Positions 21,789-51,832 of a stretch of DNA of 64,000 bases are shown piece after piece (positions within the stretch are counted from its first letter, which is position 1; each line of letters starts with the position of its first letter). The position numbers and the translations under genes were made by a program. The DNA comes from an uncultured Rhizobiaceae group bacterium. Lineage in GTDB: Bacteria > Pseudomonadota > Alphaproteobacteria > Rhizobiales > Rhizobiaceae. The DNA lies in contig CALSMI010000011.1 of the NCBI GenBank assembly GCA_943787415.1, positions 246,235 to 310,234 on the forward strand. Direction: 5' to 3'. The notes below the pieces were generated by a model, which was not told the DNA's origin, did no database searches, and saw only the letters and a list, made by a program, of their open reading frames with translations.

Positions 21789-21792
21789 CTAG

Positions 21793-23393
21793 CCCCAATT
21801 ATTCATCATGTCGGTTGAATTGGTTGGCGGGCATGGATCAAGCTGTTGGAATAGCGTATGATTTTGGTGTTTGAACAACATCATTCGCCATCAACGGAAG
21901 GTCCGGCCCGCCATGCAAGAAGATACTCATTTTCTTCCTGGTTTGTCACCCGTTGGGCCTGTGGAAATCCACGCCCGCTTTGATGGGGGCGCCCTGTCTT
22001 CCGATGGTGGTGTTTTGATACTGCGCGAGATTGAACGAAGGTTGAAATTCGCGGACATTCTTGCGTCCTGCCTTCATGACACCCGTGATGCGGGGCGGAC
22101 TGTCCATGCTTACGCCACGATGATCCGCTCGCGCATGCTGGCGATTTGCTGTGGCTATGAAGACTGCGACGATCTCGATGAATTGCGCCATGATCCGGCT
22201 TTCAAGCTGGCCTGCGAGCAGCTGCCGGACACTGGCAATCCGCTTGCTTCCCAGCCGACGCTTTCAAGGCTCGAGAACACGCCGTCCTGGCGGGAACTGG
22301 CACGCATGGGACTGGCCCTGATTGATCTGTTCTGTGACAGTTTTAACGCCGTTCCCGGTCATATTGTTCTGGACATTGATGACACCACCGACCGGACATA
22401 TGGCGATCAGCAACTCTGCCTGTTCAACACCCATGCCGGGGGCTATTGTTTCCAGCCGATCCACATTTACGATGCCGCGACAGGCAAGCCGGTTTGTTTT
22501 GTACTTCGACCTGGCAAGCGGCCCTCGGGGGAAGAGGCCGCGCAAATTTTACGCCACGTCATCGCCCGTATTCGTCGTAACTGGCCCCGTGTTGTCATCA
22601 CCGTACGTGGAGACGGGCACTATGGAACGCCTGAGGTCATGGATTACCTTGAGAATACCGGTTGCGGTTACATTCTTGGCCTCCCCGGCAATGCCCGTCT
22701 CAAGCGGATGAGCCATGCATGGTGTGAGGATGTCGCCGTGCGCCGGGCAGGATCAGGCAAGGACAAAATCCGCCGCTTTTTCCAGACCGGTTACAGGGCT
22801 GGCAGTTGGTCGAAGCAACGCAAGGTGATCGCCCGCGTTGAGGCGACCCATCAGGGCAGCGATATCCGCTTCATCGTCACCAATCTGGCTGGAAGGGCCA
22901 AACATCTTTACGAGAAGGTCTACTGCGCCCGCGGCAAAATGGAAAACCTGATCAAGGAACACAAGCTCTATACCAAATCCGACCGAACCTCCTGTCACCG
23001 CTGGCAGGCCAACCAGTTCCGGTTGTTTTTGCATACTGGCGCCTACTGGTTGCTGCTGTTATTGCGCAGGGCTACCCCAAAACGATCGCAATTCCGAGCC
23101 GCCACTTTCGAGACCATCCGACGAACATTCCTGAAAATTGCGGTGCGTGTAGAGCAGTTGAAATCAAGGATCAAGATTGCTTTTCCAACAGCCTGCCCAC
23201 AGCGCAGAATGCTTGTCATGTTGATGGGCCGCATCAAAGCGCAAAGCCCGTGACCAACGCGGCATTAGCCGCCGCCCGAACCCCAAATACAACCCTCAAC
23301 GCGTAATCAAAGTTCCAATCACACCACAGCCGTCAACCCGGCCGATCTCCTACGCTTGATCAAAAACCGAATAGGCTTGGTGAATAATTCGGG
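21793..23393 (+). mobile_element. IS1380-family-like insertion sequence, copy B (1601 bp) with CTAG at both flanks
   Basis: Same IRs as copy A. CTAG lies at 21789-21792 and 23394-23397. Confidence 0.75.
21871..23253 (+). CDS. DDE transposase (IS1380-family-like)
   Basis: 460 aa. It differs at one residue from the 6312-7694 copy. Confidence 0.85.
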   Translation: MNNIIRHQRKVRPAMQEDTHFLPGLSPVGPVEIHARFDGGALSSDGGVLILREIERRLKFADILASCLHDTRDAGRTVHAYATMIRSRMLAICCGYEDCDDLDELRHDPAFKLACEQLPDTGNPLASQPTLSRLENTPSWRELARMGLALIDLFCDSFNAVPGHIVLDIDDTTDRTYGDQQLCLFNTHAGGYCFQPIHIYDAATGKPVCFVLRPGKRPSGEEAAQILRHVIARIRRNWPRVVITVRGDGHYGTPEVMDYLENTGCGYILGLPGNARLKRMSHAWCEDVAVRRAGSGKDKIRRFFQTGYRAGSWSKQRKVIARVEATHQGSDIRFIVTNLAGRAKHLYEKVYCARGKMENLIKEHKLYTKSDRTSCHRWQANQFRLFLHTGAYWLLLLLRRATPKRSQFRAATFETIRRTFLKIAVRVEQLKSRIKIAFPTACPQRRMLVMLMGRIKAQSP

Positions 23394-23602
23394 CTAGACG
23401 TGCAAATCCGGCCAAAAGGCAGAAGGTTCTCAAAAATTCTGGCAAAGTCCGCTGAAGTCGCAAAAGCCAAGCCGACTATCAAAATCCGTCCGACTTTCCA
23501 CACATGGCGTAATTCCTGGGCCTCCCCATTCAGCATCCGCATAGATGTATTCTGGACAGGTAACAGGAAGTGTATTTGACTTTCCAAGGAAGGAGATTCG
23601 CT

Positions 23603-23925: not shown

Positions 23926-24888
23926 CTAAACTAATCCTAACTTTTGCCTAGAAGTCTCAATAATGGCTTCGGCGCATATTTCGAACAGATCATATTGCTT
24001 GATCATGTTTTCAACCCCGATGAACTTCCGGTTTCGCACGCCAAGGTTCGACGAAAAGTGCCAAACGTTTCCCATGTTCACTTCAAGAGCATAGAGTTTT
24101 CTATCCTCAGATGACCGAAGTATATCGATGCCTTTTGAAACGCTGTCGAAAACTGCATCGACGCGGAGAGCAAAATCTTCGATTTCCTTGTCTTCATATA
24201 GCTCCCGCTTAAGCTTGCCGGAATTAGAAGCCACCTTCTCCGCCAAAACCAAATTCTGCATGGGCGCATTCACCGGCGTCAGCGCATCCTGGATTGAACG
24301 TCGGCAGCTGACAACGCGGCTTAGAAAGGTCTGCACCCTGAAATGCTCAGGCATGCCACCGGTTGGTATGTGCTGCTGCACCAGGGGAGGGGACCTTCCG
24401 ATCTTTTCATATTGGGTCGCATGCTCGTCCCGATAGCTTTCGAACTCGCTCGTCCGGATCATCGTCACCCCGCGACCAAGGCTTGCGCCTTTTTCGGTCG
24501 GTTTGATGATCAAATACTCGCCGAATTCCGCGGGATCTACCCGGGTTTTTGTTTCCAGTCTGGTAGTTTTCGGCACTCGCACGCCGGCTGCTTCCAGCTT
24601 GCTAACCTGAATCGCTTTATGAACTGATTTCGTCGTGAGACGAGGGCCCCTAAATTGCGGAAATGGATTCTGTTTGAAACCATGGAATTGCAGCATCAGC
24701 GTCGGGACCTTGGGCGGGCGAAGTCTTCTTAGCTCGGAAGCATCTTTGATATTCACCGGCTTCCAGAACATCGACCCATCTTTTGCAGCAATAGCCTTGC
24801 CAATGCTCGACAGGTCCGACGCCGATATGAACGTGGGAGAGTAGGGAGCAATGACACAATACTTGTAGCTCATTTTGCAGCTCGACAA
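23926..24888 (-). CDS. ATP-grasp-fold-like protein, function unknown
   Basis: The order of elements resembles RimK-type ATP-grasp enzymes: KLEAAGVRVPKT..., YLIIKPTEKGASLGRGV, VQQHIP...FRVQTF, GIDILRSSEDRKLYALEVN. This is recognised by eye only. Confidence 0.45.
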   Translation of the reverse strand: MSSCKMSYKYCVIAPYSPTFISASDLSSIGKAIAAKDGSMFWKPVNIKDASELRRLRPPKVPTLMLQFHGFKQNPFPQFRGPRLTTKSVHKAIQVSKLEAAGVRVPKTTRLETKTRVDPAEFGEYLIIKPTEKGASLGRGVTMIRTSEFESYRDEHATQYEKIGRSPPLVQQHIPTGGMPEHFRVQTFLSRVVSCRRSIQDALTPVNAPMQNLVLAEKVASNSGKLKRELYEDKEIEDFALRVDAVFDSVSKGIDILRSSEDRKLYALEVNMGNVWHFSSNLGVRNRKFIGVENMIKQYDLFEICAEAIIETSRQKLGLV

Positions 24889-25087: not shown

Positions 25088-25618
25088 CTATTTGAATAAC
25101 TGGCGTTTGCAGAAGTATTGATAGATGTTGTAGTCGTCAAAAAGATAGGATTTCAGCCCTGCGCGGCGCCCCGCTTCGACGTCAGAAGACTTGTCCCCGA
25201 TCATTACAGAGCGTTTCAAGTCCAGATTCCAGTCTCTGGCCGCCCTAATAATCATGCCTGGATTTGGTTTTCTATCTGGATGGTTTTCATGCCGATAGGT
25301 AGGCAGCACAGCCTCGGGATGAAACGGGCATTGGTAAAATGCGGCGATGAGGCCACCCCGCGAGCGGATTACCTGCTGCATATGCGCGTGAATTCTTTGA
25401 ACGTCATCTTCCGAAAAATATCCCCTGGCCACACCAGATTGATTTGTGACCACAACCACGGGGATGTCAAGTTCCTTAAGTCGCTGTAAAGTATGAAAAA
25501 TTCCAGGAACCCATTCCAGTTTTGTGATACTGTCCAGGTAACCTGAATCACGGATAATGACGCCGTCTCTGTCCAAAAAGACTGCTCGTTTCAAAGGTCT
25601 GACTGTGGGACAGGGCAA
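25088..25618 (-). CDS. gmhB: D-glycero-beta-D-manno-heptose-1,7-bisphosphate 7-phosphatase (HAD-IIIA)
   Basis: AVFLDRDGVI (DxDGT/V-type motif I), VVVTNQSGVARGYF, CPFHPE, RKPNPGM, MIGDKSSDVEAG: the GmhB/histidinol-phosphatase subfamily signature. Confidence 0.8.
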   Translation of the reverse strand: MPCPTVRPLKRAVFLDRDGVIIRDSGYLDSITKLEWVPGIFHTLQRLKELDIPVVVVTNQSGVARGYFSEDDVQRIHAHMQQVIRSRGGLIAAFYQCPFHPEAVLPTYRHENHPDRKPNPGMIIRAARDWNLDLKRSVMIGDKSSDVEAGRRAGLKSYLFDDYNIYQYFCKRQLFK

Positions 25619-25857
25619 TGTTTAATCTCAAAATCGAATCGATTATGGTTTCAATATCGATTTTGCCCGTGGAACTTGGCAGTTGCCAGTCTGAAAGAGT
25701 TGAATTTGTGGAAACCCGCTCAGAATTTGGCGGGAAGTGTGCCCTGCAGGCAACATGTGTCGAGTAATCCTGTTGCTGTCGCGGTGCTCCAGGTTGACAT
25801 GGCGGAGACTTTTAAAGATAAATAACTCGATTTTAATATATTCTTGGTGTCAGGCTC

Positions 25858-28800
25858 GTGAATTCACGTATTGGACAGTTTGCAAATCGTTTTGCCGTAG
25901 GTGTTTCGGTCATCGCTTTGGCCGCTTCACTCAGCGCAAAGAGTGCTGAAGCGCAGGTTATAATCAACGATGATCCAAATTTTGATGGTTTCAATGAAGA
26001 GACGATCGACGGCTTCATCAACAATGACCAGATCTTAAGTGGCCCGCCAGCGTTGGTTGTCAACGGCGATTTGAACGGCGATCTGATCAACAATGATGAG
26101 ATGCGTTCGTCGAGCCACGGCGTTGTTGTTAGTGGTGAAATGAACGGGGATTTGACCAACAGCGCAGGTGGTTGGATTGGTGCGTCCGATATTGGTTTGA
26201 TGTTTGACGACGTCTTCAATGGCGACTTCAACAACTTCGGTCGGATAGACAGTGGCGACTCGCATGCGGTTATGTTTTCGCAGCAGATGACCGGCGACTT
26301 CACAAATGGCGCTGATGCTGAGATTCGTGCGGGCGAGTTGGGTGTTTATTTCAGCGAAGGTTTGTATGGTGATTTTCTCAATCACGGCGAAGTATTTTCC
26401 GGCGACTCGCACGGTGTTGTCATTTGCTATGGTTTAATGGGAAATTTTACAAACACCTCCGATGCGTTGATCTGGGGCAGCGATATGGGCGTTGCCATCA
26501 GGAACATTCCGTCTTGTCTGGACGAGGATGAGGACGACGTTTGCACGACGGGCTACAGAGGCCCATTCGATGCGATGCATCCTGGATTGGCTATGTACGG
26601 CAATTTCCGAAACGACGGAATTATTCGTGGCGGTGATTCCCACGGCGTTCATATATCGGGCGGTTTGATCGGCGACTTCACCAACAGCGCCGGGGCAGAG
26701 ATCATTGGTTCCGACATGGGAGTCGAAATTCGCAGCGGAGGGTGGTCTGCCAATGAAAGCATTGCAATGGAGGGCAATTTCCTTAACCAAGGGCGGATAG
26801 AATCTGGTGATAGCCACGGCGTGGTGATCTCAGGCGGTTTGGTTGGCAACTTTACCAACGCGGCTGGGGCCAGGATTTCTGGTTCTGATATGGGCGTCAT
26901 CATCCAACTTCGGAATACCCAGTGTGAAGGAGATGAAGACGAAAACTGCGACGTTGTGCAGCGTTACGGATTGACGGGCAATTTCCTGAACGAGGGCGAA
27001 ATCATCGGTGGAGACAGCCACGGCGTCTACATAACACAAGGCCTGATGGGCGACTTCACGAATGCTGCGGGTGCACGCATAATTGGTGCGGATGCCGGTA
27101 TCATCATTCGTCGAAACCAGGAAACCCGCGTTGGCGTGATGGGTGACTTCTGGAATGCCGGCTTGATCGACTCTGGCGATTGCCATGGCGTGTATATTTC
27201 CGGAGATTTCATTGGGGACTTCACCAACGCCGCCGGTGGTCTGATTCGTGCTTCTGAAATGGGCGTCAAGTTTGATGGTTTCTTTGATGGAGATTTTCTG
27301 AACGAAGGCGAGATCGTAGGTGGCGATAGTCACGGCGTTTTCTTTGACCAGACACTGATGGGTAACTTCACCAACGCGGCAGGCGCCCGGATCTGGGGGC
27401 AGGAAAACGGCGTACAGTTCGATGCTAACCAGTGGTACAATCCAGAATCAGAGGAAGACGAAGCCGTCGACTCTCTAGCTGGCAACTTCAACAATCATGG
27501 AGAAATCTTCTCCGGCAACAGCCACGGCGTGGTTTTCAGAAGCACCGTCATGGGAAATTTCTGGAACAGTTCCACCGGCACAATAGTGGCGTTGAACCGC
27601 AACGGCGTTTTGCAGGACTATAACGGCACAGGCTGGCACGGTGATTTTACGAACGAGGGCCTGATCGAAGGCAGCCAGTTCATGACCGAAGATGGCGAAG
27701 ATTATCCCTCAATCGGTTTCGGCGTTAAACTTCGCAACCACTTCGCCGGTGATTTTACCAATGACGGCACAATCCGGGGTAAGCAGGCTGTATTCATAGG
27801 AGGCGACTTTACCGGCGACTACGTTAACAGGGGAATGTTGACGGGTGCTCACGAGGGTGGTGCGTACCTCGGCTACGACGAGGACGAGGACGAGGACATG
27901 TACGGTGTGTTCGGAGGCTTCACTACGGTCATTGGTGGGAATTTTGACGGCAACTTGACCAATACGGTCGGTCATGGCGTCCAGGTGGGGATTCCGCAGT
28001 ATAATGGCGAGGACAGCGAACTGGGATCGGCCACGATTCCGGACGGTACCGGTACGGCCGACTTCACCGGCCACACGATTGGCGTTCATGTTAACGGTAT
28101 CGTGACAAATGGTTTCAGCTGGACTGCGGTCGATGCGGAAAACCTGCTTACCGATCCGGGTTTAACGATTCAGGACAACTCCTTCCTGTTTGATTTCGAT
28201 CCGTTCCTCAATGGCACGAACGACCTGATCCTGACAGCGGACCAGGTTTCCACCATTGCAGCCGCGATTGGCGGTGCTGCCGGCAGTCTGGGGCTGGCGG
28301 CTGCTCTGGACGCTTATGTCCCGGGTACTGACCCGGATATTGATGACATCCTTGGAAATATCCATAGTCTGCCGACGGCTCCGGAAATTCAACAGGCGTT
28401 GAACGAGGCTTCTCCGGCGGGGCATGCATCGAGAAATTCCACATTCTATACTTCGACACTGTTTGACTCGCTTCTCAACCAGCGCCTCGACGGGGAAAAT
28501 GGCGGAGGCGCCTCATCATTCGGTTTGGGCCGAGGCGTTCTGGAATACTTTATCGGTGGCGACCGTAACAAGGGTTCATCCAGCACCGATGCCTATGGGC
28601 ATTCTGGAGATGCCTCCCATGATTCCGTCATGTGGCTGCAAGGAATGGGCACCTATGCCTCGGTAGATCCAAACGGTGCATTTGGCGGCGTTGATGTGTC
28701 TTCAAGTGGAGTGGCAATTGGCGTCAATACATCGATCTACGCGGGAACGCGGATCGCGGCGGCGTTTGGGTATCACTCTTCGAATGCCGACATGACAGGT

Positions 28801-29424
28801 GTCAATAGCGGAGACGGTTCTGATGCGTCCGGCTGGTTGATTTCCAGTGGGATCCATCATCAGACAAACCAAACGTATCTTTCTGGCAGCGTCTCTGCTG
28901 GTTTCCATTCCTTCGATGAGACCAGGCGAGACAACATCTTTATGAATACCTACACGGCATCTTACGACGGCTCACATTTCAACGTTAGTGGTGAGGTGGG
29001 GCACGAAATTGAAATGGGAGACAAAACACTGACTCCATTCATTGCCGGCACCTACCATCACGCGTCGTTTGATGGCTACACCGAAACTGGCGGGCCCTTG
29101 GCCCTGACGGTTGGCAGTCAGTCTTATGATGTGAGCTTTATTGATGTTGGTGCACGGGCCAAGGCTCAGGTGGGGCAGATTGATGTTGAAGGCCTGCTTG
29201 GATATCGAGTCGGATTTGGAGATGGGGACGACGCTATTTCCGCCACTCTAAACGGTACGAGCTTCAACACTGACGCAAATCTGGACGTTGATGGAGTTAT
29301 CGCCGGGATCGGAGTGTCGATTGCCAACGATAGTGGTTTCGATGCAAGTGTTAATTACAAGGGCATTTTTGGTGATGGAGTGGGCGCTCACATCCTGAGT
29401 GCAAGTGTTAAGAAACGCTTCTAA
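25858..29424 (+). CDS. type Va autotransporter with repeat-rich beta-helical passenger
   Basis: GTG start, then a signal-like N-terminus (..VIALAASLSAKSAEA|QV). There are about 9 copies of a two-rung unit of about 49 aa (GDFxNxGxIxGGDSHGVxI / LxGDFTNAAGAxIxGSDMGV). The C-terminal approx 270 aa (from approx 28627) has an alternating beta-strand pattern ending ..SASVKKRF. Confidence 0.85.
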   Translation: MNSRIGQFANRFAVGVSVIALAASLSAKSAEAQVIINDDPNFDGFNEETIDGFINNDQILSGPPALVVNGDLNGDLINNDEMRSSSHGVVVSGEMNGDLTNSAGGWIGASDIGLMFDDVFNGDFNNFGRIDSGDSHAVMFSQQMTGDFTNGADAEIRAGELGVYFSEGLYGDFLNHGEVFSGDSHGVVICYGLMGNFTNTSDALIWGSDMGVAIRNIPSCLDEDEDDVCTTGYRGPFDAMHPGLAMYGNFRNDGIIRGGDSHGVHISGGLIGDFTNSAGAEIIGSDMGVEIRSGGWSANESIAMEGNFLNQGRIESGDSHGVVISGGLVGNFTNAAGARISGSDMGVIIQLRNTQCEGDEDENCDVVQRYGLTGNFLNEGEIIGGDSHGVYITQGLMGDFTNAAGARIIGADAGIIIRRNQETRVGVMGDFWNAGLIDSGDCHGVYISGDFIGDFTNAAGGLIRASEMGVKFDGFFDGDFLNEGEIVGGDSHGVFFDQTLMGNFTNAAGARIWGQENGVQFDANQWYNPESEEDEAVDSLAGNFNNHGEIFSGNSHGVVFRSTVMGNFWNSSTGTIVALNRNGVLQDYNGTGWHGDFTNEGLIEGSQFMTEDGEDYPSIGFGVKLRNHFAGDFTNDGTIRGKQAVFIGGDFTGDYVNRGMLTGAHEGGAYLGYDEDEDEDMYGVFGGFTTVIGGNFDGNLTNTVGHGVQVGIPQYNGEDSELGSATIPDGTGTADFTGHTIGVHVNGIVTNGFSWTAVDAENLLTDPGLTIQDNSFLFDFDPFLNGTNDLILTADQVSTIAAAIGGAAGSLGLAAALDAYVPGTDPDIDDILGNIHSLPTAPEIQQALNEASPAGHASRNSTFYTSTLFDSLLNQRLDGENGGGASSFGLGRGVLEYFIGGDRNKGSSSTDAYGHSGDASHDSVMWLQGMGTYASVDPNGAFGGVDVSSSGVAIGVNTSIYAGTRIAAAFGYHSSNADMTGVNSGDGSDASGWLISSGIHHQTNQTYLSGSVSAGFHSFDETRRDNIFMNTYTASYDGSHFNVSGEVGHEIEMGDKTLTPFIAGTYHHASFDGYTETGGPLALTVGSQSYDVSFIDVGARAKAQVGQIDVEGLLGYRVGFGDGDDAISATLNGTSFNTDANLDVDGVIAGIGVSIANDSGFDASVNYKGIFGDGVGAHILSASVKKRF

Positions 29425-29496
29425 ACACTCAACTGACTGGAAAAGCTCGTAGTTTGCTGCACGAGGGTTTTGTAGCGTGCAATTGGATCTGCCTTC

Positions 29497-30990
29497 TTGA
29501 CAAATGCTCAAGATAATTTGATCGATACCTGCAAGGCGATCAGATCGTTCTTGCTTGAGAAGTCTCCAACAATTCTTGTTGTTGGGGACCTAATTCTCGA
29601 TGAATACATCCATGGAACGGTGGACCGGATATCCCCCGAGGCTCCGATTCCGGTTGTCTTCAACAATGATCGGACGATTCGCAGTGGAGGAGCGGCAAAT
29701 GTTGCCAACAATCTGCTCGCCCTGGGCGCTGATGTTCGCTTGCTGGGCGTCGTGGGAGAAGACAATTCTGGCGCAGAACTTTTAGAGTTGCTTGCCCGGC
29801 AGAAGGTGAACGTAGATGGTGTGGTCGCCACTTCTCAACGGCGCACGACGCAGAAGACGCGCATCATTGCCCAAAACCAGCAGATGCTGCGCCTGGACAC
29901 GGAGGATCGTGATCCGCTTGGGCCGCCCCAGGCGAATGAGTTGATGTCGCTGATCGAAAGTCAGGCGGCAAGCTGCGACGCCATCATTGTGTCCGATTAC
30001 AACAAGGGTGTATGCGTCGCGCCGGTGGTTGAGGCGGCGGTCAGTCTGGCAATGCGGCTTGGAATACCCCTACTCGGCGACCCCAAGGGAAATGAGGTTT
30101 TAAAGTACCGGCGCGCGACTGTTCTAACGCCGAATTTGGCAGAGGCCGAACTGATACTTGGAGAGTCAATTGACGGCACAGAGCGCGCAATTTCGGCTGC
30201 CAATGAGCTCCGGGAGAAGCTGGGTCTGGAGGCGATACTGGTGACCATGGGCGGGGCGGGCATGGTTGTGTCAGAACGCTCCACCACGACTTCAATTTCC
30301 GGACACGTCCGGGAAGTGGCAGATGTCACGGGCGCCGGGGACACGGTCATTTCGGCGCTTTGTTTGGCCATGGTGTGCGGCCAGAATCTGTCGTCGGCAA
30401 GCGAATTTGCAAATGCGGCTGCTTCTGTGGTCGTCGGAAAGCTCGGCAGCGCGTCCACAACGCTTGAGGAACTGCTGGACATCTTTGGTGAGGAGATCAA
30501 CCGAAATTCTCCAGAGGTCAAGCAGGTGGGGCAGGGGGAACTGGCGTTGCTGGTCGCCAAATATAAAGCTGATGGCGTGAGCACGGTGTTTACGAACGGG
30601 TGCTTCGACGTGCTGCATGCGGGCCACGTCGAGCTTCTGTCAAAGGCAGCCGCACTTGGGGACGTGCTCTTCGTCGGACTAAACAGCGATGACTCTGTGC
30701 GGGCTTTGAAGGGTGACGGCAGGCCAATTATGAAGGCTGAGGACCGCGTCAACATGCTGGCAGCACTGGCGGTGGTTGACCACATTGTTGTTTTCGCTTC
30801 GGCAACACCGGCTGCCTTGATTGAGACGATTACTCCAGACGTGCTGGTCAAAGGGGCAGATTATGTTGACAAGGAGGTTGTCGGCGCCGACTTTGTCACC
30901 TCGCGGGGCGGAAGGGTTGAACTCATTCCATTGAAGAAAGACAGATCGACCACGTCGATCATTGAACTAATCGGCAAGGTCAAGAAATGA
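29497..30990 (+). CDS. hldE: bifunctional D-beta-D-heptose-7-phosphate kinase / D-beta-D-heptose-1-phosphate adenylyltransferase
   Basis: The N-terminal ribokinase-like domain has VVGDLILDEYIHGTVDRISPEAPIPVV...GGAANVANN and the GAGDT motif. The C-terminal cytidylyltransferase-like domain has VFTNGCFDVLHAGH. 497 aa, with a TTG start at 29497 (uncertain). Confidence 0.9.
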   Translation: MTNAQDNLIDTCKAIRSFLLEKSPTILVVGDLILDEYIHGTVDRISPEAPIPVVFNNDRTIRSGGAANVANNLLALGADVRLLGVVGEDNSGAELLELLARQKVNVDGVVATSQRRTTQKTRIIAQNQQMLRLDTEDRDPLGPPQANELMSLIESQAASCDAIIVSDYNKGVCVAPVVEAAVSLAMRLGIPLLGDPKGNEVLKYRRATVLTPNLAEAELILGESIDGTERAISAANELREKLGLEAILVTMGGAGMVVSERSTTTSISGHVREVADVTGAGDTVISALCLAMVCGQNLSSASEFANAAASVVVGKLGSASTTLEELLDIFGEEINRNSPEVKQVGQGELALLVAKYKADGVSTVFTNGCFDVLHAGHVELLSKAAALGDVLFVGLNSDDSVRALKGDGRPIMKAEDRVNMLAALAVVDHIVVFASATPAALIETITPDVLVKGADYVDKEVVGADFVTSRGGRVELIPLKKDRSTTSIIELIGKVKK

Positions 30991-31913
30991 TCGTGGTTAC
31001 CGGCGGCGCCGGCTTTATTGGCAGCAACATCGTGCATGGTCTGAACCGAAGAGGTGAAGACAATATCGTCGTGGTTGATGACCTCACCGACGGTCACAAA
31101 CATCGCAACCTGCAGTTGGCAAATTTCACCGACTTTCTGGACAAGGACGATTTTCTTGAGGTCTTGGAACAGATTGAAAAGCCGACTGCGGTTTTTCATC
31201 AAGGGGCTTGCAGCGACACAACGGAGCACAACGGACGCCGAATGATGGCGGACAACTTCGATTATTCGAAGACCTTGCTGACCTACTGTGCCAAGCACGA
31301 CATTCCCTTCCTCTACGCGTCTTCGGCGGCGATTTACGGAACCGGAAAGCAGGGATTTTCCATAAGGTCGGAGTGCGAACGCCCACTAAACGTTTACGGC
31401 TTTTCAAAGATGGTGTTCGACAAGTATGTTCGGCATCATCTCGACAAGTTTTCGATGCCGGTCGTCGGACTTCGTTATTTCAATGTTTACGGACCAAGAG
31501 AGGGGCATAAGGGGAAAATGTCCTCTGTTGTTCTCAAGCTGTATGAGCAAAATCGCGACGGGTTGCCCATGACACTGTTTGACGGAAGCGATGAGTTCCG
31601 CAGAGACTTTGTTTACGTAGACGATGTTGTTGACGTAAATTTCTATCTCCTGGAGAACCGCAGTTCCGGTATCGTCAATGTCGGAACCGGGGAAGCGCGT
31701 TCGTTTATGGAAATGGGCGACCTTGTGTGCGCACAATTGCCTGGTGCGAAGCTCGAGACCATTCCCATGCCTGAATCGCTGGTCGATCAATACCAGGACT
31801 ACACTTGTGCCGACATTTCAGAACTGCGCGACCTTGGCTACACAAATTCCTTTTCCGATCTGGAAACCGGAGTCCGCAATTATTTCGACTGGCTCAAATC
31901 GGAGGATGCGTAA
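30987..31913 (+). CDS. hldD: ADP-L-glycero-D-manno-heptose 6-epimerase
   Basis: MIVVTGGAGFIGSNIV...VVDDLTDGHK..., SSAAIYG, YGFSK (YxxxK). The start overlaps the hldE stop (ATGA). Confidence 0.9.
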   Translation: MIVVTGGAGFIGSNIVHGLNRRGEDNIVVVDDLTDGHKHRNLQLANFTDFLDKDDFLEVLEQIEKPTAVFHQGACSDTTEHNGRRMMADNFDYSKTLLTYCAKHDIPFLYASSAAIYGTGKQGFSIRSECERPLNVYGFSKMVFDKYVRHHLDKFSMPVVGLRYFNVYGPREGHKGKMSSVVLKLYEQNRDGLPMTLFDGSDEFRRDFVYVDDVVDVNFYLLENRSSGIVNVGTGEARSFMEMGDLVCAQLPGAKLETIPMPESLVDQYQDYTCADISELRDLGYTNSFSDLETGVRNYFDWLKSEDA

Positions 31914-32492
31914 ATGAGCGAGCCCAAGTTTGGGCCGGTTGTCGACCAGGTCTTTCAGCGACACAACAATATGATGCAAGCGTGTGATGACGCGCTGTAT
32001 GAGGGCGTTGCAAGGGTTGGGGCTTTGGTCCGCGATACCTTGAAGGGTGGCAATTCCGTTTTCGCCTGCGGAAATGGTGGAAGCGCCGGAGATGCCCAGC
32101 ACCTCGTTTCTGAACTGGTCGGACGATTTGTTATTGAGCGGCGTGGCTACAGCGCAATTGCTCTGAATGAAAACGTCTCTGTGTTGACGGCTTTGTCCAA
32201 CGACTATGGTTACGAGAATGTCTTCGCCCGCCAGTTGGAGGCGCTTGCTAAGCCAGGGGATACATTTGTCTGGTTCTCGACCTCGGGCACCAGCCCGAAT
32301 GTTCTGGTTGCTGTAGAGAAAGCTCGTAAAATGGGCATGTCGGTTGTCGGTTTCACCGGAGAAAAGGGAAAAGACCTTTCCACGCGTTGCGATGCTGCGA
32401 TCGTTGCTCCTGCAACGGAGACAGCGCGGATCCAGGAGTTCCATCTCATTGCATTACATTGTGTGTGCGAAATCGTGGATTCAAGCTCATGA
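31914..32492 (+). CDS. gmhA: phosphoheptose isomerase (SIS domain)
   Basis: ACGNGGSAGDAQHLVSELVGRF..ER...AIALN...LTALSNDYGYENVFARQLEA...GD.F...STSG.S.N is the GmhA signature. The ATG directly follows the hldD TAA. Confidence 0.9.
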   Translation: MSEPKFGPVVDQVFQRHNNMMQACDDALYEGVARVGALVRDTLKGGNSVFACGNGGSAGDAQHLVSELVGRFVIERRGYSAIALNENVSVLTALSNDYGYENVFARQLEALAKPGDTFVWFSTSGTSPNVLVAVEKARKMGMSVVGFTGEKGKDLSTRCDAAIVAPATETARIQEFHLIALHCVCEIVDSSS

Positions 32493-32511
32493 ACAGCTAT
32501 TGGACGTGTGA

Positions 32512-34440
32512 ATGACTCAATCAACGCTTTCAGCTGCGCAGTCTAAAGCTGTCTCGAGAGTAAGGTCAGCTCTTGAAGCCGGCCGAGCAAATGAAGCCGA
32601 AAAAATCTGTCAGCAGTTGGAAGCCCAAAACACCAAAAACGCTGAATTTCAACGTTTGTGGGCCACGGCATGTCAACTGTTAGGCCAAGGCAAGCTGGCG
32701 TTGGCGAAAGTCGACAAAGCTATAAAGCTGTCGCCGAAGAATGCCGTTTTTCATGAGCTTAAAGCCCGCATTTCTTTGGCGAATGGTGACGCTGCCGGGG
32801 CCTTAGCCGCCTACGACTCTGCAATCAGTGTTCAGCCCAATTTTCTGACCGCTTTGATGGGAAAGGGCGATCTACTTTTGCAACTCGGGCGCATGGCCGA
32901 TGCGGTTCCGCTTTACGACCGGGCTCTGTTGCTTGATCCGAAGAATTCTGATGCCTTTCACAACCGTGGTTATGCCGTTGAAAGGCATGGAGATTTGAGG
33001 GCGGCGCTGGGCAACTATTCTCGTGCAATCCTGCTTCGTGACAACTATGCCCAAGCATACAACAACCGAGGCAATACACTTTTCACATTGAACAATCATC
33101 TGGCCGCAATAGAAGACTATGACGCTGCGATTGAGGCAGATCCCACCTATGCGCCGCCCTTTAACAACAAGGCCAATGCTCTTGTGGTGCTCAAGCGTTT
33201 CGACGAAGCGATGCCCTGTCTGGAGAAGGCGCTCGAAATCGAACCCGATTACAGCGCTGCTTACAATAATTTGGGCTTCGCATACCAGAAACAGGGTCGG
33301 CACCAGGAGGCTATTGAGGCCCTGGAACGTTCAATAGAGCTCGATCCCGATTACGCAGAGGCCCACAACAACCGAGGCCATTCCCTCCAAAAATTGTGCC
33401 GATTTGACGAAGCCTTAGAGAGTTTTGAGAAAGCGCTGACGTTGAAGCCCAATTATGCGGAAGCGGTCTGGAATCGTGGGCTCATTAACCTTTTGATCGG
33501 CAACCTTGAGCAGGGTTGGAATGACATGGAGTGGCGTTGGCGCCGCAATTCATATCAGGATGATCCGTCGCCCAGGGACCGCCCCCATTGGAACGGCGAG
33601 GACCTGAAGGGGCGCTCCATTACCGTTTACGTAGAACAGGGCTTCGGCGACATGTTTCAGTTTGGTCGGTACCTGTTGCCGATGCTCGAAGCTGGCGCGA
33701 AGGTGACATTCGCTGCGCCAAGAATAATACACCGTTTGATGTCCAGCATGTCTCCTGACATTCAGTTTCAACATACCTTTGAAAAAGAGGTTTCCAGCGA
33801 CTTTCATTGCATGCTGTTCAGTCTTCCAAGAGCGTTCAAAACAACACTCGAAAATGTTCCCGCTCCGGTTCCTTACCTGCATGCGGAGCCGGAACTGGTT
33901 GAGCACTGGAAGCAACAAATCGGTAAAGATGGCTTCAAGATTGCCATATCCTGGCAAGGAAACCCCTCGGGAGATGTTGATCTTGGTCGCTCAATACCTC
34001 TGGAAAAGTTGGAGTGTCTGTCCAAAATCACGGGTGTGCGCCTGATCAGTATTCAGTTTGAACATGGGCTCGAACAGCTCGAGACGATCTCACCCGATAC
34101 AAAGATCGAGATATTAGATGGTTTCAACGAGGGACCGGATGGATTTGTCGACACGGCCGCGGTAATGAATTGCGTCGATCTTGTCCTTACAACCGATAGC
34201 GCACCTGCGCATTTGGCCGGCGCCTTGGGAGTGCCGGTTTGGCTGATGCTGATGCAAGTTCCAGACTGGCGGTACCTTTTGGAACGCGAGGATTCGCCCT
34301 GGTACCCCACTATGAGGCTATTTCGTCAATCAAAAGCAGGTGATTGGGACCAGGTTGTCTCAGACGTAGAGCAAGCCCTTAAGGTTGAGATGGCTAACAA
34401 AGATGGCGCCCACTCTATGTCAGAAACGCAAAAAGATTGA
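32512..34440 (+). CDS. TPR-repeat protein fused to a GT9-like (heptosyltransferase-like) GT-B domain, paralogue 1
   Basis: The N-terminal approx 330 aa are 34-aa TPR repeats (..AYNNRGNTL.., AYNNLGFAYQKQGRHQEAIEALERSIELDPDYAEAHNNRG..). The C-terminal approx 300 aa carry GFGDMFQF and DLVLTTDSAPAHLAGALGVPVWLML...SPWYPTMRLFRQ. These resemble the sugar-nucleotide half of ADP-heptose-dependent GT9 enzymes (DSGxxHLAAAlG.P). Confidence 0.65.
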   Translation: MTQSTLSAAQSKAVSRVRSALEAGRANEAEKICQQLEAQNTKNAEFQRLWATACQLLGQGKLALAKVDKAIKLSPKNAVFHELKARISLANGDAAGALAAYDSAISVQPNFLTALMGKGDLLLQLGRMADAVPLYDRALLLDPKNSDAFHNRGYAVERHGDLRAALGNYSRAILLRDNYAQAYNNRGNTLFTLNNHLAAIEDYDAAIEADPTYAPPFNNKANALVVLKRFDEAMPCLEKALEIEPDYSAAYNNLGFAYQKQGRHQEAIEALERSIELDPDYAEAHNNRGHSLQKLCRFDEALESFEKALTLKPNYAEAVWNRGLINLLIGNLEQGWNDMEWRWRRNSYQDDPSPRDRPHWNGEDLKGRSITVYVEQGFGDMFQFGRYLLPMLEAGAKVTFAAPRIIHRLMSSMSPDIQFQHTFEKEVSSDFHCMLFSLPRAFKTTLENVPAPVPYLHAEPELVEHWKQQIGKDGFKIAISWQGNPSGDVDLGRSIPLEKLECLSKITGVRLISIQFEHGLEQLETISPDTKIEILDGFNEGPDGFVDTAAVMNCVDLVLTTDSAPAHLAGALGVPVWLMLMQVPDWRYLLEREDSPWYPTMRLFRQSKAGDWDQVVSDVEQALKVEMANKDGAHSMSETQKD

Positions 34441-34449
34441 TCCAACGAC

Positions 34450-36504
34450 GTGTCACAAGCAGATTCCAACAGTGCCAAAATAGTTGTCCAAGATATAGGA
34501 AACCTGCTTTCGCAGGGCAGGATTGATGCTGCAGTTGATCGTTTCTCGGAATGGCAAAAGAGGAAAAAAAGCAATGATCAAGAAAGCTTTTTTAAAGTAT
34601 TTTCACCTGCTGTTCTGCGGGCATTGAGCCAGTCTGTCGAAGGGTCCAGTCATGCATTGGGTAAGGCGACGCTGTATTTGGAAACCGGCTTCGCGCAAGA
34701 AGCAGAAAGGTGTCTGCGATCTTCAATTGAAAAGAGTCCGTCTCCTGCTGAATTGTTGGTTTACGCTGACGCACTGAACAGATTGGGACGCGTTCAACAA
34801 AGCCTCGCTATTTATGAACAGGCGGCAAGATCCCATCCCGACAATGCCGAAATCCACTTCGAGATGGGCAGATTAATGCAGGCTCTTGGAAAGTTGAGCG
34901 AAGCCCGCGTGGCCTTTGAGAAAGCCAGTGCGCTTGCTCCAGGCAATGCCCAATTCTGGCTGGAATTCGGCAACGTGCACAAGCAGCTGGGCAACCTGTC
35001 CGCCGCTGGCCAGGCTTACACTCGGGCGATCGAGTTCCAGAAGGGTTATGCCGAAGCGTATAACAATCGGGGCACGATACTGAAGCATCTGAAACGCATG
35101 AAAGAGGCCTACGCGGACTTCAGTCAAGCTATCAAGATCAACCCACGGCATCTCTATGCCTACCTCAATCGCGGAGCGCTGTTGGCTGATACTGAACAGT
35201 ATGAGGCCGCCCAACGAGATTTCGAGATGGCACTGGCAATCGCGCCGGATGACGAAAATGCCTATCACAGCCTCGGTGAAGTGCTGCATCGATTGGGCAA
35301 AAATCGGAAAGCAATCAGGCATTTTGATACTGCTATTTTGCTGTCGAAGCACATGAGCAGGGCTTATCTTTCGAAGGGCAATTGTCAATTGGCGCTGGAT
35401 GAGTTTGAAGGAGCAGTAGAATCCTTTAAGCAATCCACACAAGTCAATGATCAGTTCCTGGAAGGGTACATCAACTGGGGTGTGGCGCTTCAGGAGATGG
35501 GTCGGCATTCGGAAACAATAGAAGTGCTCGACAAGTCTTTGACTGTCCGGTCAGATTTCAATGAGGCGAAATGGAACAAGGCGAACTCCATGCTTTGCCT
35601 GGGCCTTTCCAAAGACGCCTGGCAGAACTATGAGAAGCGCCACCATTTGGAAACGGGAAAACAACTTCTCGACTATGGAAAACCCATTCTGGGCGATACG
35701 CCACCTGACGGACTCAAACTTCTGCTGCAGTGGGATCAAAGATTTGGAGACATCATCCAGGTAATGCGGTTTGTGAAACCCATTGAAAAGGCGGCAGCGG
35801 GATGCGTTTGGCAAATGGCGCCGGAGATGGAGCAGCTTGTAAAGGCCAGTTTTCCCGATATCGAAATCGTTAACCGCACATCCTGCCCAGACAACGTCGG
35901 ATTTAGATTGCCCATTACCAGCCTGCCACTCGCGTTGGGGGTATTTGATGATGCATCAGTCCCCAACGAAACGCCTTATTTGGTCCCATCACCCAAGGCG
36001 GTGGAGGCGTGGAGGGAACGGATTCCGAGCGAGGGGTTTAAGGTCGGATTGACCTGGCGTGGAAGACCAACACCTCCAGGTCGCAGCATTCCAATTGGGG
36101 AACTGGAGCCGATTTTGGCCACCACGGATGTAACTTTCGTTTCTTTGCAGATGGATACGAGCCCATCTGAAAAAAAGCTGCTCGAAAAGCACGGCGTCTT
36201 GCAACCGGGCGATGACATTGAAACCTTTGACGACACGGCCGCAATCCTGTCGATGCTGGATCTCACGGTAACCATCGATACTTCTGTGGCGCACCTTTCA
36301 GGAGCATTGGGACGTACCACCTGGGTGCTCCTGAAGTTTGGCGGAGACTGGCGCTGGCACCTGGAAGGTACGGAGAGCCTTTGGTACCCGACCGCAAAGA
36401 TTTACAGGCAGTCCGAAATCTCTGACTGGTCGGATGTCATTAAGCGGGCCGCAACCGATTTGGCAAAGCTGGCCCACCATCTGTTGAATGTCACTGAGAA
36501 CTGA
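34450..36504 (+). CDS. TPR-repeat protein fused to a GT9-like GT-B domain, paralogue 2
   Basis: Same architecture as paralogue 1: TPRs (..AYNNRGTILKHLKRMKEAYADFSQAIKINP..), then RFGDIIQVMRF and DLTVTIDTSVAHLSGALGRTTWVLL...SLWYPTAKIYRQ. GTG start 9 nt after paralogue 1. Confidence 0.65.
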   Translation: MSQADSNSAKIVVQDIGNLLSQGRIDAAVDRFSEWQKRKKSNDQESFFKVFSPAVLRALSQSVEGSSHALGKATLYLETGFAQEAERCLRSSIEKSPSPAELLVYADALNRLGRVQQSLAIYEQAARSHPDNAEIHFEMGRLMQALGKLSEARVAFEKASALAPGNAQFWLEFGNVHKQLGNLSAAGQAYTRAIEFQKGYAEAYNNRGTILKHLKRMKEAYADFSQAIKINPRHLYAYLNRGALLADTEQYEAAQRDFEMALAIAPDDENAYHSLGEVLHRLGKNRKAIRHFDTAILLSKHMSRAYLSKGNCQLALDEFEGAVESFKQSTQVNDQFLEGYINWGVALQEMGRHSETIEVLDKSLTVRSDFNEAKWNKANSMLCLGLSKDAWQNYEKRHHLETGKQLLDYGKPILGDTPPDGLKLLLQWDQRFGDIIQVMRFVKPIEKAAAGCVWQMAPEMEQLVKASFPDIEIVNRTSCPDNVGFRLPITSLPLALGVFDDASVPNETPYLVPSPKAVEAWRERIPSEGFKVGLTWRGRPTPPGRSIPIGELEPILATTDVTFVSLQMDTSPSEKKLLEKHGVLQPGDDIETFDDTAAILSMLDLTVTIDTSVAHLSGALGRTTWVLLKFGGDWRWHLEGTESLWYPTAKIYRQSEISDWSDVIKRAATDLAKLAHHLLNVTEN

Positions 36505-36545
36505 CCCGGTACCTCAAGACTAATGGCGTAGGTTCAACACCGTTA

Positions 36546-37019
36546 TTGGGATTTATCGGCGCTAGCATCGTCCGAAACGTCATCGATTGCGAAAACCATC
36601 GATTTGAATTTGCTTCAGATCATCAAGACCAGTTTCCGGCATTCGTATGTGAGGCCTTTGGTCCCGACGGCGAATGTGCAGTAGACATTGTTGCCTGGCC
36701 GCTGGAAAGACCCGGCCATGTGATGACGATGTTTGGCAGATGTGGATTGCTAGGGGCCTGGGAAGCCATAAACCCTGCTTCCTACTATCTGAACACGCCG
36801 CTTCTCATGCACCGAACACCGCTGGATTGGCTCAAAGCAGGATGCCGCGGAGCTGTAGTTGTTGTGCCTCATGTCGCAGCGCGCATGTTGCTTGACCTTC
36901 CCGGCAAAGTCGCCGCACAGGACGAAGTTCATGGTCAGGAACTGGAGCGGTTGCGTCGAAGCGTTCTACCAGTTGACCAAATTCTTGTCCCCACTATCAA
37001 GGAAGGATTGGCAGCATGA
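36546..37019 (+). CDS. hypothetical protein coupled to the RepA-like ATPase (possibly 5'-truncated)
   Basis: 157 aa with only a TTG start, 42 bp after the preceding operon. Its stop overlaps the ATG of the next gene (ATGA). No motif was recognised. Confidence 0.4.
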   Translation: MGFIGASIVRNVIDCENHRFEFASDHQDQFPAFVCEAFGPDGECAVDIVAWPLERPGHVMTMFGRCGLLGAWEAINPASYYLNTPLLMHRTPLDWLKAGCRGAVVVVPHVAARMLLDLPGKVAAQDEVHGQELERLRRSVLPVDQILVPTIKEGLAA

Positions 37020-38245
37020 ACTCGATCTCAACACTTCCCCAAGATTATGAACCACTGGGCGCTCCTGGTTCTCTCAAGCCCGCTGTAAAGCAATGTCCCA
37101 CGTTTGCGACCAAATCTACCAACGAAATTATGAACACCCTCTACGCGCCAGTTATGTGGGTAGTGGAAGGTTACCTGCCCGAAGGGTTTTCGGTGCTTGC
37201 GGGACGCCAGAAGCTCGGCAAGACATGGCTGGCTATAGACTGGGCGATTGCTGTGGCCACCAGTGGCTGCGCCATGGGTGAAATCACCTGCGAACGCGGC
37301 GACGTACTTTATATCGATATGGAAAACGGTGACAGGCGCATTCAACGGCGCGTTGAAACCATATTTCCAAATTCTGCAAACCGACCAGACTTATCCCGCC
37401 TGCAATGGGCTGGCGACGTTATTGCTCTGGGTAAGGGGTTTATAGGTGCCATCGAAAAATGGCGACTATCGGCTGCCAAACCACGGCTGATCGTCATCGA
37501 TGTGTTGCAACGTATCAAACCGGCTGGCTTAAAGGCCCGGAACGCTTATGAGAACGACTATGACGCGTTTGCTGGATTGCAATCCTGGGCGATGGAACAT
37601 GGTATCGCGGTGCTTGCCCTTCATCACACCCGCAAAGGGGGGGCTGACGACCCGCTGGAGGCCCTAACAGGTTCCAATGGCCTTTCCGCCTGTGCAGACA
37701 CAACCTTGGTTCTGGACCGCGATGCAAGTGGCATTACGCTTTATGTGCGGGGCCGTGATGTCGAGGAAAAGGAAACCGCCTTGATATTCGATGGAGGCAT
37801 CTGGTCAATGATTGGTGATGCCGGTGAAGTTCGTCGGTCAGATGAACGGTCACGTATTTTATCGGAACTTTTTACAGCAAATGCGCCAATTACGCCTGTG
37901 GAGCTGGTTGCGGCGACGGGCATGAAGCGCAACAACCTTGATCAATTGCTTTATCGTATGGCTAAAGCTGGAGAAATTCAGAAGTGTGGGCGTGGGAAAT
38001 ACGTCCATCTGGATCGTTCTGATCTTCTTACACAGGCGCCCCCCACTAAGAACGATAAGAAGATAAGAAAACCGCAATCACCAGACACTAACACCTTGGA
38101 AACATTTGATGAATCCATTGATGGCCAATCTAATCCACCAGGACCGCCGATAAGAAACGTAAGATCACCGATAAGAACGGAACCAGATGAAAGAGAAAGT
38201 GAACTACCTGAATTGCCCGAGTTTTTAAGAAGGACCCAGCAATGA
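37016..38245 (+). CDS. AAA_25/RepA-like RecA-fold ATPase of mobile elements
   Basis: Walker A-like AGRQKLGKTWLAIDWAIA, GDVLYIDMEN, Walker B LIVIDVLQRI, and HHTRKGG.DDPLEALTGS.GL.A.ADT..VL. This is the pattern of RepA/AAA_25 replicative ATPases. The C-terminal tail is low-complexity. Confidence 0.7.
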   Translation: MNSISTLPQDYEPLGAPGSLKPAVKQCPTFATKSTNEIMNTLYAPVMWVVEGYLPEGFSVLAGRQKLGKTWLAIDWAIAVATSGCAMGEITCERGDVLYIDMENGDRRIQRRVETIFPNSANRPDLSRLQWAGDVIALGKGFIGAIEKWRLSAAKPRLIVIDVLQRIKPAGLKARNAYENDYDAFAGLQSWAMEHGIAVLALHHTRKGGADDPLEALTGSNGLSACADTTLVLDRDASGITLYVRGRDVEEKETALIFDGGIWSMIGDAGEVRRSDERSRILSELFTANAPITPVELVAATGMKRNNLDQLLYRMAKAGEIQKCGRGKYVHLDRSDLLTQAPPTKNDKKIRKPQSPDTNTLETFDESIDGQSNPPGPPIRNVRSPIRTEPDERESELPELPEFLRRTQQ

Positions 38246-42230: not shown

Positions 42231-42994
42231 CCGGAGGCACAAACGACACGCCACAATTGTTGCTGGCCCATCATCTCAAATCCCTTCGTCTGCCGACCTT
42301 CCTGCGGGAATACGACAAGGTGGCAAAGCTGTGTGCTGCCGAAGGTGTCGACCACACCCGCTATCTGCTGCGGCTAACGGAGTTGGAACTCATTGACCGG
42401 GAACGGCGGATGGTCGAACGGCGCATCAAAGGTGCAAAGTTCCCGACCACCAAGAGCCTCGACAGCTTTGACTTTAAAGCCATGCCATCCCTCAACAAGA
42501 TGATGGTCATGGAGCTGGCCCGGTGTGACTTTATCAACCGACAAGAGAACATCATTGCCGTTGGCAACAGCGGAACAGGCAAGACGCACATCGCAATTGG
42601 TCTGGGGTTGGCAGCCTGTCAGAAAGGCCTGTCTGTCGGCTTCATGACAGCATCGGCTTTGGTGCACGAACTTTTGGAGGCTCGTGACGAGAAACGGTTA
42701 CTGCGCCTGCAGAAACAGCTCGCCAAATACAGCCTGCTGATCATTGACGAACTGGGATATGTGCCGCTGTCGCCAACTGGGGCAGAACTGCTGTTTGAGG
42801 TCTTCTCCCAACGCTACGAGCGTGGCTCCACAGTCGTTACGTCCAACTTGCCATTCGATGAATGGACAAGCACATTTGGATCACAACGTCTCACCGGCGC
42901 ACTTCTAGATCGGCTGACACATCATGTTCATATCCTGGAGATGAACGGTGACAGTTATCGGCTGAAGCAGAGCAATCAATCCCTGAACGCCTGA
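42227..42994 (+). CDS. istB: IS21-family helper ATPase IstB
   Basis: Walker A GNSGTGKTH and Walker B LLIIDELGY, with the DnaA/IstB-like pattern ..SNLPFDEW... Overlaps istA by ATGA. Confidence 0.9.
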   Translation: MTGGTNDTPQLLLAHHLKSLRLPTFLREYDKVAKLCAAEGVDHTRYLLRLTELELIDRERRMVERRIKGAKFPTTKSLDSFDFKAMPSLNKMMVMELARCDFINRQENIIAVGNSGTGKTHIAIGLGLAACQKGLSVGFMTASALVHELLEARDEKRLLRLQKQLAKYSLLIIDELGYVPLSPTGAELLFEVFSQRYERGSTVVTSNLPFDEWTSTFGSQRLTGALLDRLTHHVHILEMNGDSYRLKQSNQSLNA

Positions 42995-50617: not shown

Positions 50618-50791
50618 TAAAATTCACATTCGAAAGTGATCTGATACGGCATTGCCAGAGCCGCACGCCAGCGATGTGATGCATTGGTTTTCAAAACGTC
50701 GTGATCGAAAACTTATCTGTTGCTGGATGCGCGATAAACTATAAGCTGTTGCATCAAAATTGAGAATTTCCATAACCAACAGGAATGCATC

Positions 50792-51724: not shown

Positions 51725-51832
51725 TCGGCTTGCCATTACCAACGGTTATCGATCCGGGTGCAGGCGTGAATTGTTTGACGGTACTCTCCATGAAATGATG
51801 GGCCTGACAACATCCGCAAAGGACCGTTTCAA

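Follow-up and report, generated by a model that had tools for sequence, protein, structure and literature searches.

To our knowledge, protein heptosylation has so far been known from one enzyme family, Aah/TibC, in enteric pathogens. The hallmarks of these BAHT enzymes are an N-terminal β-barrel (residues 1–97 of TibC), a Cys4 iron-finger and a dodecameric ring, and TibC heptosylates autotransporters in the cytoplasm (PMC4358343). FlmG, a protein of 596 aa, joins a tetratricopeptide repeat (TPR) domain (residues 1–313) to a GT-B glycosyltransferase (GT) domain (309–596), the former binding the flagellin acceptor (PMC7591256) and the latter setting the donor (bioRxiv 10.1101/2022.03.25.485807). 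Here we describe a locus that combines features of both, located at positions 25,088–36,504 of a 64,000-nucleotide stretch of DNA (the window) from an uncultured Rhizobiaceae bacterium (contig CALSMI010000011.1, positions 246,235 to 310,234). It contains an autotransporter gene, genes for the ADP-heptose pathway, and two paralogous genes, TG1 and TG2, whose products have an N-terminal TPR array and a C-terminal GT domain. From the predicted fold of these domains and the gene context we propose, with moderate confidence, that this is a dedicated autotransporter glycosylation module, in which the passenger would be glycosylated in the cytoplasm by a TPR-guided, ADP-heptose-dependent reaction.

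Autotransporter heptosylation and TPR–GT-B protein glycosyltransferases are each known separately; what is new here is their union, the pairing of two enzymes, and the built-in donor pathway. Full-text literature searches of an incomplete collection returned work on BAHT, FlmG and HMW1C and no description of this combination, in agreement with a first-pass annotation of the window, made from the sequence, which knew of no described system of this composition.

The type Va autotransporter gene (25858–29424) codes for a protein of 1188 aa with a Sec signal peptide, a repeat passenger and a C-terminal β-barrel, and is the proposed acceptor. It heads a single co-directional, tightly packed run on the forward strand that continues with hldE (29497–30990; bifunctional heptose-7-P kinase/heptose-1-P adenylyltransferase), hldD (30987–31913; ADP-glyceromanno-heptose 6-epimerase), gmhA (31914–32492; SIS-domain sedoheptulose-7-phosphate isomerase), TG1 (32512–34440; 642 aa) and TG2 (34450–36504; 684 aa). 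The gap between the autotransporter gene and hldE is 72 nt and shows no terminator-like site; hldE and hldD share an ATGA overlap, the TAA of hldD abuts the ATG of gmhA, and TG1 and TG2 are preceded by gaps of 19 nt and 9 nt respectively. A gene for a gmhB-like HAD phosphatase (25088–25618, reverse strand) is transcribed divergently, 239 bp upstream of the autotransporter gene. All of these reading frames and junctions, including the divergent gmhB, had been given in the first-pass annotation, and re-reading of the open reading frame (ORF) map and the junction sequences returned them identically. Sister contigs call a later gmhB start (162 aa), which gives a wider spacing. The intergenic region (25619–25857), as read from the sequence, presumably holds the promoters for both directions; a consensus promoter scan of it gave nothing better than shuffled sequence, and no promoter was assigned.

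An ORF of 320 aa (23926–24888, reverse strand) lies downstream of and co-directional with gmhB, has faint matches to ATP-grasp proteins (RimK, LysX), and is kept beside gmhB in the sister contigs L166 and L168 (here and below, L numbers denote loci and P numbers proteins in our collection); it may be a member of the module. In other assemblies (contigs of 89,782 and 91,881 bp) TG1, TG2 and the autotransporter are called as fragments of 141–595 aa, which are probably frameshift errors rather than real pseudogenes.

TG1 and TG2 share 28% identity. In both proteins TPR arrays recognized by Pfam fill the N-terminal ~330–390 residues (approximately residues 1–330 in TG1 and 1–390 in TG2), followed by a GT-B domain that resembles glycosyltransferase family 9 (GT9; approximately residues 335–625 in TG1), and neither has a signal peptide; TG1 is a putative cytoplasmic protein heptosyltransferase and TG2 its paralogue of the same TPR plus GT9-like architecture. 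Sequence cannot by itself place the GT domain: searched against PDB sequences, either singly or as a 14-sequence profile, it finds 3tov at E 0.4–1.6 and nothing better. A profile still holding the TPR columns matched TPR proteins and the TPR region of OGT only, and was uninformative on the catalytic domain.

It is the predicted structure that settles the assignment as GT9-like. AlphaFold2 models of the C-terminal domains have a predicted local distance difference test score (pLDDT) of 93.6 and a predicted template modeling score (pTM) of 0.92 for TG1, and 90.0 and 0.91 for TG2, and both are two-lobed Rossmann-type structures of the GT-B class. With TG1 as query, each of the 27 best PDB matches by Foldseek is to 3tov (GT9), TibC (4rap, 4rb4), WaaC (2h1h, 2gt1, 6dfe) or WaaF (1psw), at E 2e-7 to 5e-5 and template modeling (TM) scores of 0.46–0.57; the same set of 3tov, WaaC, WaaF and TibC comes out on top for TG2, and over both models the range is E 2e-7 to 1e-4 with TM up to 0.62. 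TibC itself is matched at E 4.5e-6 by TG1 and 1.3e-4 by TG2, with TM 0.5–0.57. The structural comparison with WaaC, WaaF and TibC thus turned out as the first-pass annotation had anticipated, the best matches being GT9 and heptose-transferring enzymes.

An N-terminal GD motif and a C-terminal D-x4-H motif are the parts of the domain aligned to 3tov by the profile search. Neither motif varies among 64 family members or in TG2, which keeps every family-invariant residue; the GD motif reads GFGD in TG1 and RFGD in TG2. The Asp of the GD motif we take to be the counterpart of the catalytic Asp13 of WaaC. In TibC, a D110A substitution is catalytically inactive (PMC4358343). This conservation bears on whether TG1 and TG2 are enzymes at all. 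TPR proteins often serve as secretion chaperones, and there are partial matches to NCBIfam models of the SycD/LcrH type; taken with the very low sequence similarity to active GT9 enzymes, these could suggest that TG1 and TG2 are non-catalytic, their GT-like domain being degenerate, and that they help the autotransporter as chaperones or in its export. However, the GT9 motifs for catalysis and donor binding keep the same residues in all 64 members and in both paralogues, the GT-B domain is modeled with high confidence, and a chaperone would leave the co-located donor pathway unexplained, and we consider this reading highly improbable.

The likeness to the BAHT systems extends from the arrangement of the genes, with a GT gene beside that of its autotransporter substrate, to a cytoplasmic enzyme with a WaaC-like GT-B catalytic domain, ADP-heptose as the presumed donor, and a repetitive β-helix-type passenger as acceptor. 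TG1 and TG2 are nevertheless not BAHT members, because they have no β-barrel, its place being taken by the TPR array, and no iron-finger. Family alignments contain no invariant or near-invariant Cys that could correspond to the Cys4 finger (C339, C342, C358 and C370 of TibC), and none of the Cys in the GT domains (three in TG1, two or three in TG2) is conserved. The TG proteins are also longer (~640–680 aa versus ~400 aa), share 10–14% identity with the BAHT enzymes, and are kept as a paralogous pair, and whereas BAHT draws on the lipopolysaccharide (LPS) pool of donor, the window module has its own gmhA, hldE, gmhB and hldD.

FlmG-class proteins of Caulobacter and Brevundimonas, compared here from their published domain limits and not from sequence, likewise have TPR and GT-B domains in one cytoplasmic protein of ~600 aa, modify a protein in the cytoplasm before its secretion, and divide the labor between a TPR region for the acceptor and a GT-B domain for the donor. 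They differ in acting on flagellin with CMP-pseudaminic or CMP-legionaminic acid, as opposed to an autotransporter beside an ADP-heptose pathway; the window has no flagellin genes and no genes for pseudaminic or legionaminic acid, and a few loci of the wider family have flagellar neighbors. WaaC and WaaF (GT9, PF01075) are the best structural matches together with 3tov and share the GD and D-x4-H motifs, but they act on Kdo2-lipid A (Kdo, 3-deoxy-D-manno-oct-2-ulosonic acid), have no TPRs, and belong to waa clusters, whereas TG1 and TG2 fall short of the Pfam gathering score and have no LPS context. A role in LPS core synthesis as the primary function was rejected, since genes of the waa, Kdo and lipid A kinds are missing from both the window and the related loci. 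OGT/SPINDLY (GT41) and HMW1C also pair a TPR or all-helical N-terminal domain with a GT-B domain and have protein targets. OGT catalytic domains are absent from the top fold matches of TG1 and TG2, though, and GT41/OGT membership was rejected since neither protein has a Pfam match to PF13844 or HMW1C (PF18071 with PF18254).

The presumed acceptor has the type Va layout of a signal-like N-terminus, a repeat passenger and a C-terminal PF03797 barrel, the last at residues 925–1167 with 129 bits against a Pfam cutoff of 26 (E 3e-37); the autotransporter and TPR domains that the first-pass annotation had read from the sequence are therefore both recovered by Pfam. The passenger (approximately residues 35–900) is rich in Gly, Asp and Asn and is built of rungs of ~24 aa of two types in alternation, G[DN]FxN-xG-xI-xx-GDSHGV and G[DN]FTN-xAGA-xI-xG-SDMGV. 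It is a β-helix-like repeat, unlike the 19-residue repeat of AIDA and TibA. Its conserved hydroxyl residues, which we regard as candidate acceptor sites, are a Ser in GDSHGV, a Thr in FTN and a Ser in GSDMGV. Searching 5.8 billion proteins with the passenger returned just three homologues, all of them beside glycosylation genes.

Among the heptose genes, HldD scores well above its equivalog cutoff (TIGR02197, 384.9 bits versus 274.6), HldE domain II is above its cutoff (TIGR02199, 183.3 versus 181.5), and HldE domain I is at its cutoff (TIGR02198, 344.5 versus 345), with 462 bits for the model NF008454; the HldE domains are of the PfkB kinase and cytidylyltransferase-like types. The gmhB product passes the HAD-IIIA domain model TIGR01656. 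The nearest non-self homologues of HldE in the same protein collection have 46–49% identity, with none above 49%. As predicted from the genes, the ADP-heptose pathway is complete on paper and built of divergent copies. The description of this pathway as dedicated or self-sufficient would follow from the operon structure and the divergence of the heptose enzymes, as judged on the window genes. A gene of the N-acylglucosamine-2-epimerase (AGE/YihS-type isomerase) family lies beside the module in L172 (3–623, reverse strand) and L173 (16266–17519, reverse strand), two lineages in which no gmhA was seen, and might supply the aldose–ketose isomerase step.

The association of these genes recurs in other lineages. 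Close relatives of TG1 (58–65% identity) always have a TG2 orthologue directly downstream (L001, L162, L163, L164 and the P0008 contig), and an autotransporter is present as well on four of these five short contigs. On the P0008 contig, TG1–TG2 is followed by an ESPR autotransporter of 1915 aa; at L162 the end of an autotransporter β-barrel lies 25 nt upstream of TG1; at L163 the autotransporter gene is convergent with the TG pair; and at L164 TG1–TG2 precedes an ESPR autotransporter with SHGV and FTN rungs in its passenger, as in the window protein (E 6e-23). The three passenger homologues lead to further loci. Beside P0258 (50% identity; L170, L171) the order is autotransporter–hldE–hldD up to the contig end. 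P0259 (49%; L172) is divergent from TG2 and TG1, with 49% and 59% identity respectively to those of the window, and is followed by an hldE that is partial at the contig end. P0260 (30%; L173, a Rhizobiaceae metagenome-assembled genome, MAG) is followed by a gene for an HMW1C-like N-glycosyltransferase, with a GmhB-like HAD gene, a second autotransporter and a TG2-like gene nearby.

The three HldE proteins nearest to that of L170 were also followed to their loci, and all three are encoded in hldE–hldD–TG1-like operons: L174 in Mesorhizobium sp. KR9-304, L175 in a Rhizobiaceae MAG, and L176 in assembly GCA_030428345.1. At L174 an autotransporter–HMW1C-like–TG2-like run lies 4 kb upstream of the operon; at L175 there is no autotransporter within 10 kb. 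In all, a TG1–TG2 pair was observed at nine distinct loci, and at seven of them an autotransporter gene lies close by (outside the window, in P0008, L162, L163, L164, L172 and L174). Linkage of hldE–hldD is found in four further lineages, and three Rhizobiales-type genomes have the hldE–hldD–TG1 operon. Autotransporter, TG1, TG2, hldE and hldD recur as a set at 28–59% component identity to the window and in at least three gene orders. Recurrence in several lineages at such divergence and in different orders argues for functional coupling and not for a shared recent insertion, and the arrangement is more than chance. This bears out the co-occurrence across genomes that the first-pass annotation had proposed as a check; and members of the orthologous clade do not sit in LPS, capsule or flagellin loci, the setting that the first-pass annotation had named as evidence against it.

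HMW1C-like genes accompany related autotransporters at both L173 (10001–15583) and L174 (1–6005), a further point of likeness to the HMW1C systems, with a TG2-like gene directly next in L174 and ~7 kb off in L173. Two different protein-glycosylation systems seem to converge here on one autotransporter family. Many of the rungs contain N-F-T sequons.

The orthologous clade belongs to a much larger family. A search with the GT domain returns more than 7000 proteins, nearly all of them TPR fusions, from Alphaproteobacteria, Planctomycetota, Verrucomicrobiota and other groups, which are named 'tetratricopeptide repeat protein', 'TadD' or 'PilF' in the source records; some members have a precomputed PF01075 match. 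As background we used 160 distant loci from genome and metagenome scans with TG1, which were swamped by generic TPR patterns and represent relatives at 25–44% identity, not orthologues; the GT domain is present at 142 of the 160, whose flanks add up to 1.35 Mb. Among these 142 loci, an autotransporter β-domain, sought with a custom six-sequence hidden Markov model, is present at one, hldE at none, and no LPS-core context was seen. The neighbors are mixed and include a few methyltransferases, FliK or flagellin, a sulfotransferase and GT2 enzymes; a regular-expression search for flagellins near family members gave two weak cases only. The wider family as a whole is not autotransporter-linked, heptose-linked or LPS-linked.

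Such mixed neighborhoods, with flagellar genes, methyltransferases or sulfotransferases beside some members, could mean that the heptose genes and TG1/TG2 act on another protein, a polysaccharide or a lipid, and that the autotransporter is a mere island neighbor, given that surface-factor genes cluster. The IS elements that flank the region and the lack of an autotransporter near the L175 operon would fit this. Hitch-hiking would, however, hardly explain the adjacency of an autotransporter in seven of nine TG1–TG2 loci and in three gene orders, and the reverse search from the passenger arrives at three homologues that are all in glycosylation contexts; the TPR arms, moreover, suggest a protein acceptor. 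An acceptor other than the autotransporter therefore seems distinctly unlikely to us.

Several results weigh against the proposed module. PF01075 scores 20.5 bits on TG1, below the gathering cutoff of 22 and over a 30-residue stretch, and Pfam gives no match on TG2, so that the earlier description of the two as TPR–GT9 fusions holds for the TPRs by Pfam and for GT9 by structure, but not for GT9 by Pfam. Identity to heptosyltransferases is 10–14%; enzymes with other donors occur both in the GT9 family and among GT-B folds, so that the sugar is not fixed by the fold. GmhA and GmhB stay below curated cutoffs even with their best NCBIfam matches (TIGR00441, 179.7 bits versus 209, and NF010546, 188.6 bits, for GmhA; TIGR00213, 127.8 versus 150, and NF006506, 137.6 bits, for GmhB), and the first-pass claim that all four ADP-heptose enzymes are clustered stands in so far as each of the four is present and has its family as best match, while two of the assignments are sub-cutoff. 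No heptose genes occur within 5–14 kb at L162, L163, L164 and the P0008 contig. The heptose genes of the module could be the sole set of the cell, and could also serve LPS. The candidate acceptor residues in GDSHGV (Ser), G(D/N)FTN (Thr) and GSDMGV (Ser) are guesses, as is the type of linkage.

Because these four short ESPR-type loci show none, the heptose genes are an accessory and not a universal part of the TG1–TG2 module, and their lack there fits hosts that already make ADP-heptose for LPS, or a different donor. The latter would agree with a scheme in which TG1 and TG2 glycosylate the autotransporter with a sugar other than heptose while the heptose genes serve LPS core, capsule or another glycan and were brought together with them by a mobile island: TG1–TG2–autotransporter loci without heptose genes exist, the wider family has no heptose linkage, the GT9 scores are sub-threshold in Pfam, and GT-B domains of the FlmG type can be specific for very different donors (bioRxiv 10.1101/2022.03.25.485807). 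Against it, in three further genomes a TG1-like gene directly follows hldE–hldD, which in the window lies between the autotransporter gene and the TG genes; the order autotransporter–hldE–hldD is seen again in L170 and L172 (in the latter as far as the partial hldE at the contig end); the window has no LPS core or capsule genes; and nearly all of the solved structures nearest to the models are of ADP-heptose enzymes. On balance we regard a non-heptose donor as unlikely.

The heptosylation module that we favor would operate as follows. The four heptose enzymes would, by their family assignment, produce ADP-L,D-heptose in the cytoplasm. The TPR arms of TG1 and TG2 would hold the repeat passenger, unfolded or partly folded, before its export by Sec, while the GT-B domains would transfer heptose to hydroxyl side chains of the repeated rungs, and the glycosylated passenger would then be exported through its own β-barrel. 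The transfer step is drawn from fold and gene context, by analogy with FlmG and OGT for the function of the TPRs and with Aah/TibC for the chemistry. The paralogues are kept as a pair and are therefore probably not redundant; as speculation, the two enzymes might modify two classes of site, divide initiation and extension between them, or join in a heterodimer. The donor genes probably travel with the module for the benefit of hosts without a sufficient housekeeping pool of ADP-heptose, and would be dispensable elsewhere. The arrangement of the genes, the folds, the conserved motifs and the gene linkage across lineages are shown here; from these we infer the donor, the acceptor, the O-linkage, the role of the TPRs and the need for two paralogues.

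More tentatively, TG1 and TG2 could represent a second, independently evolved class of autotransporter heptosyltransferase that uses TPR recognition of the FlmG/OGT kind in place of the TibC ring, works as an obligate pair, and brings its own supply of ADP-heptose into bacteria with no other need for heptose in their envelope. The TPR plus GT9-like family of more than 7000 members could then, more broadly, consist of cytoplasmic protein glycosyltransferases with clade-specific acceptors and donors. If so, heptose decoration of adhesins has evolved more than once, and also in environmental and plant-associated Alphaproteobacteria, and a very large family, so far annotated merely as 'tetratricopeptide repeat protein', gains a first clue to function. 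The module would also provide a compact, self-sufficient cassette of donor, enzyme and acceptor for glycoengineering. ADP-heptose is an innate-immune agonist, and the module would be a source of it apart from LPS. A cultured bacterium, Mesorhizobium sp. KR9-304, carries the module, which makes the hypothesis directly testable.

The module is flanked on one side by an intact insertion sequence (IS) and on the other by a downstream IS21 element. The upstream IS is 1609 bp long and codes for a DDE_Tnp_1_4 transposase of 460 aa; it is present as two inverted copies, 100% identical, at 6168–7776 and 21789–23397, 14,012 bp apart. Immediately after TG2, at 36546–38245, orf157 (no family match) overlaps the start of a gene for a 409-aa AAA_25 protein, a RepA-like ATPase, beyond which are a gene for a two-cupin protein and the IS21 istA/istB pair (40725–42994). 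The first-pass annotation had located the module between IS debris and a RepA-like mobile-element module; the RepA-like gene is indeed present downstream, but the upstream IS is intact and has an identical second copy. In a sister assembly of the same organism an IS66 element (tnpA, tnpB and tnpC; L165 10995–13282) is inserted between TG2 and orf157, at approximately 36505–36545 of the window, and this insertion polymorphism marks the downstream edge of the module. Related loci also have mobile elements nearby, with an IS3-type transposase upstream of the autotransporter in L170 and a serine recombinase near L174, and the contigs with TG1 orthologues span 41% to 64% GC. A megablast search of the module against plasmids found nothing. 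Given the intact ISs, the insertions at related loci and the spread in GC content, horizontal mobility of the module is plausible, as had been suggested.

Other features of the window lie outside the module. The pair of identical ISs brackets ftsH-like, dnaJ-like, EamA, oxidoreductase and groEL genes and resembles a composite transposon with stress-protein paralogues; the bracketed GroEL is a singleton at 90% clustering. A gene for a large serine recombinase is at the left end (1300–3036), and a similar one (L174 20532–21500), accompanied by DUF3489 and DUF2924 genes, lies by the Mesorhizobium island; these recombinases may be a sign of integrative elements. At the other end, positions 49637–63206 contain three arylsulfatase/choline-sulfatase-like genes, a gene resembling that of the formylglycine-generating enzyme, a LysR regulator and an Opp/Nik-type ABC transporter, which are unrelated to the module.

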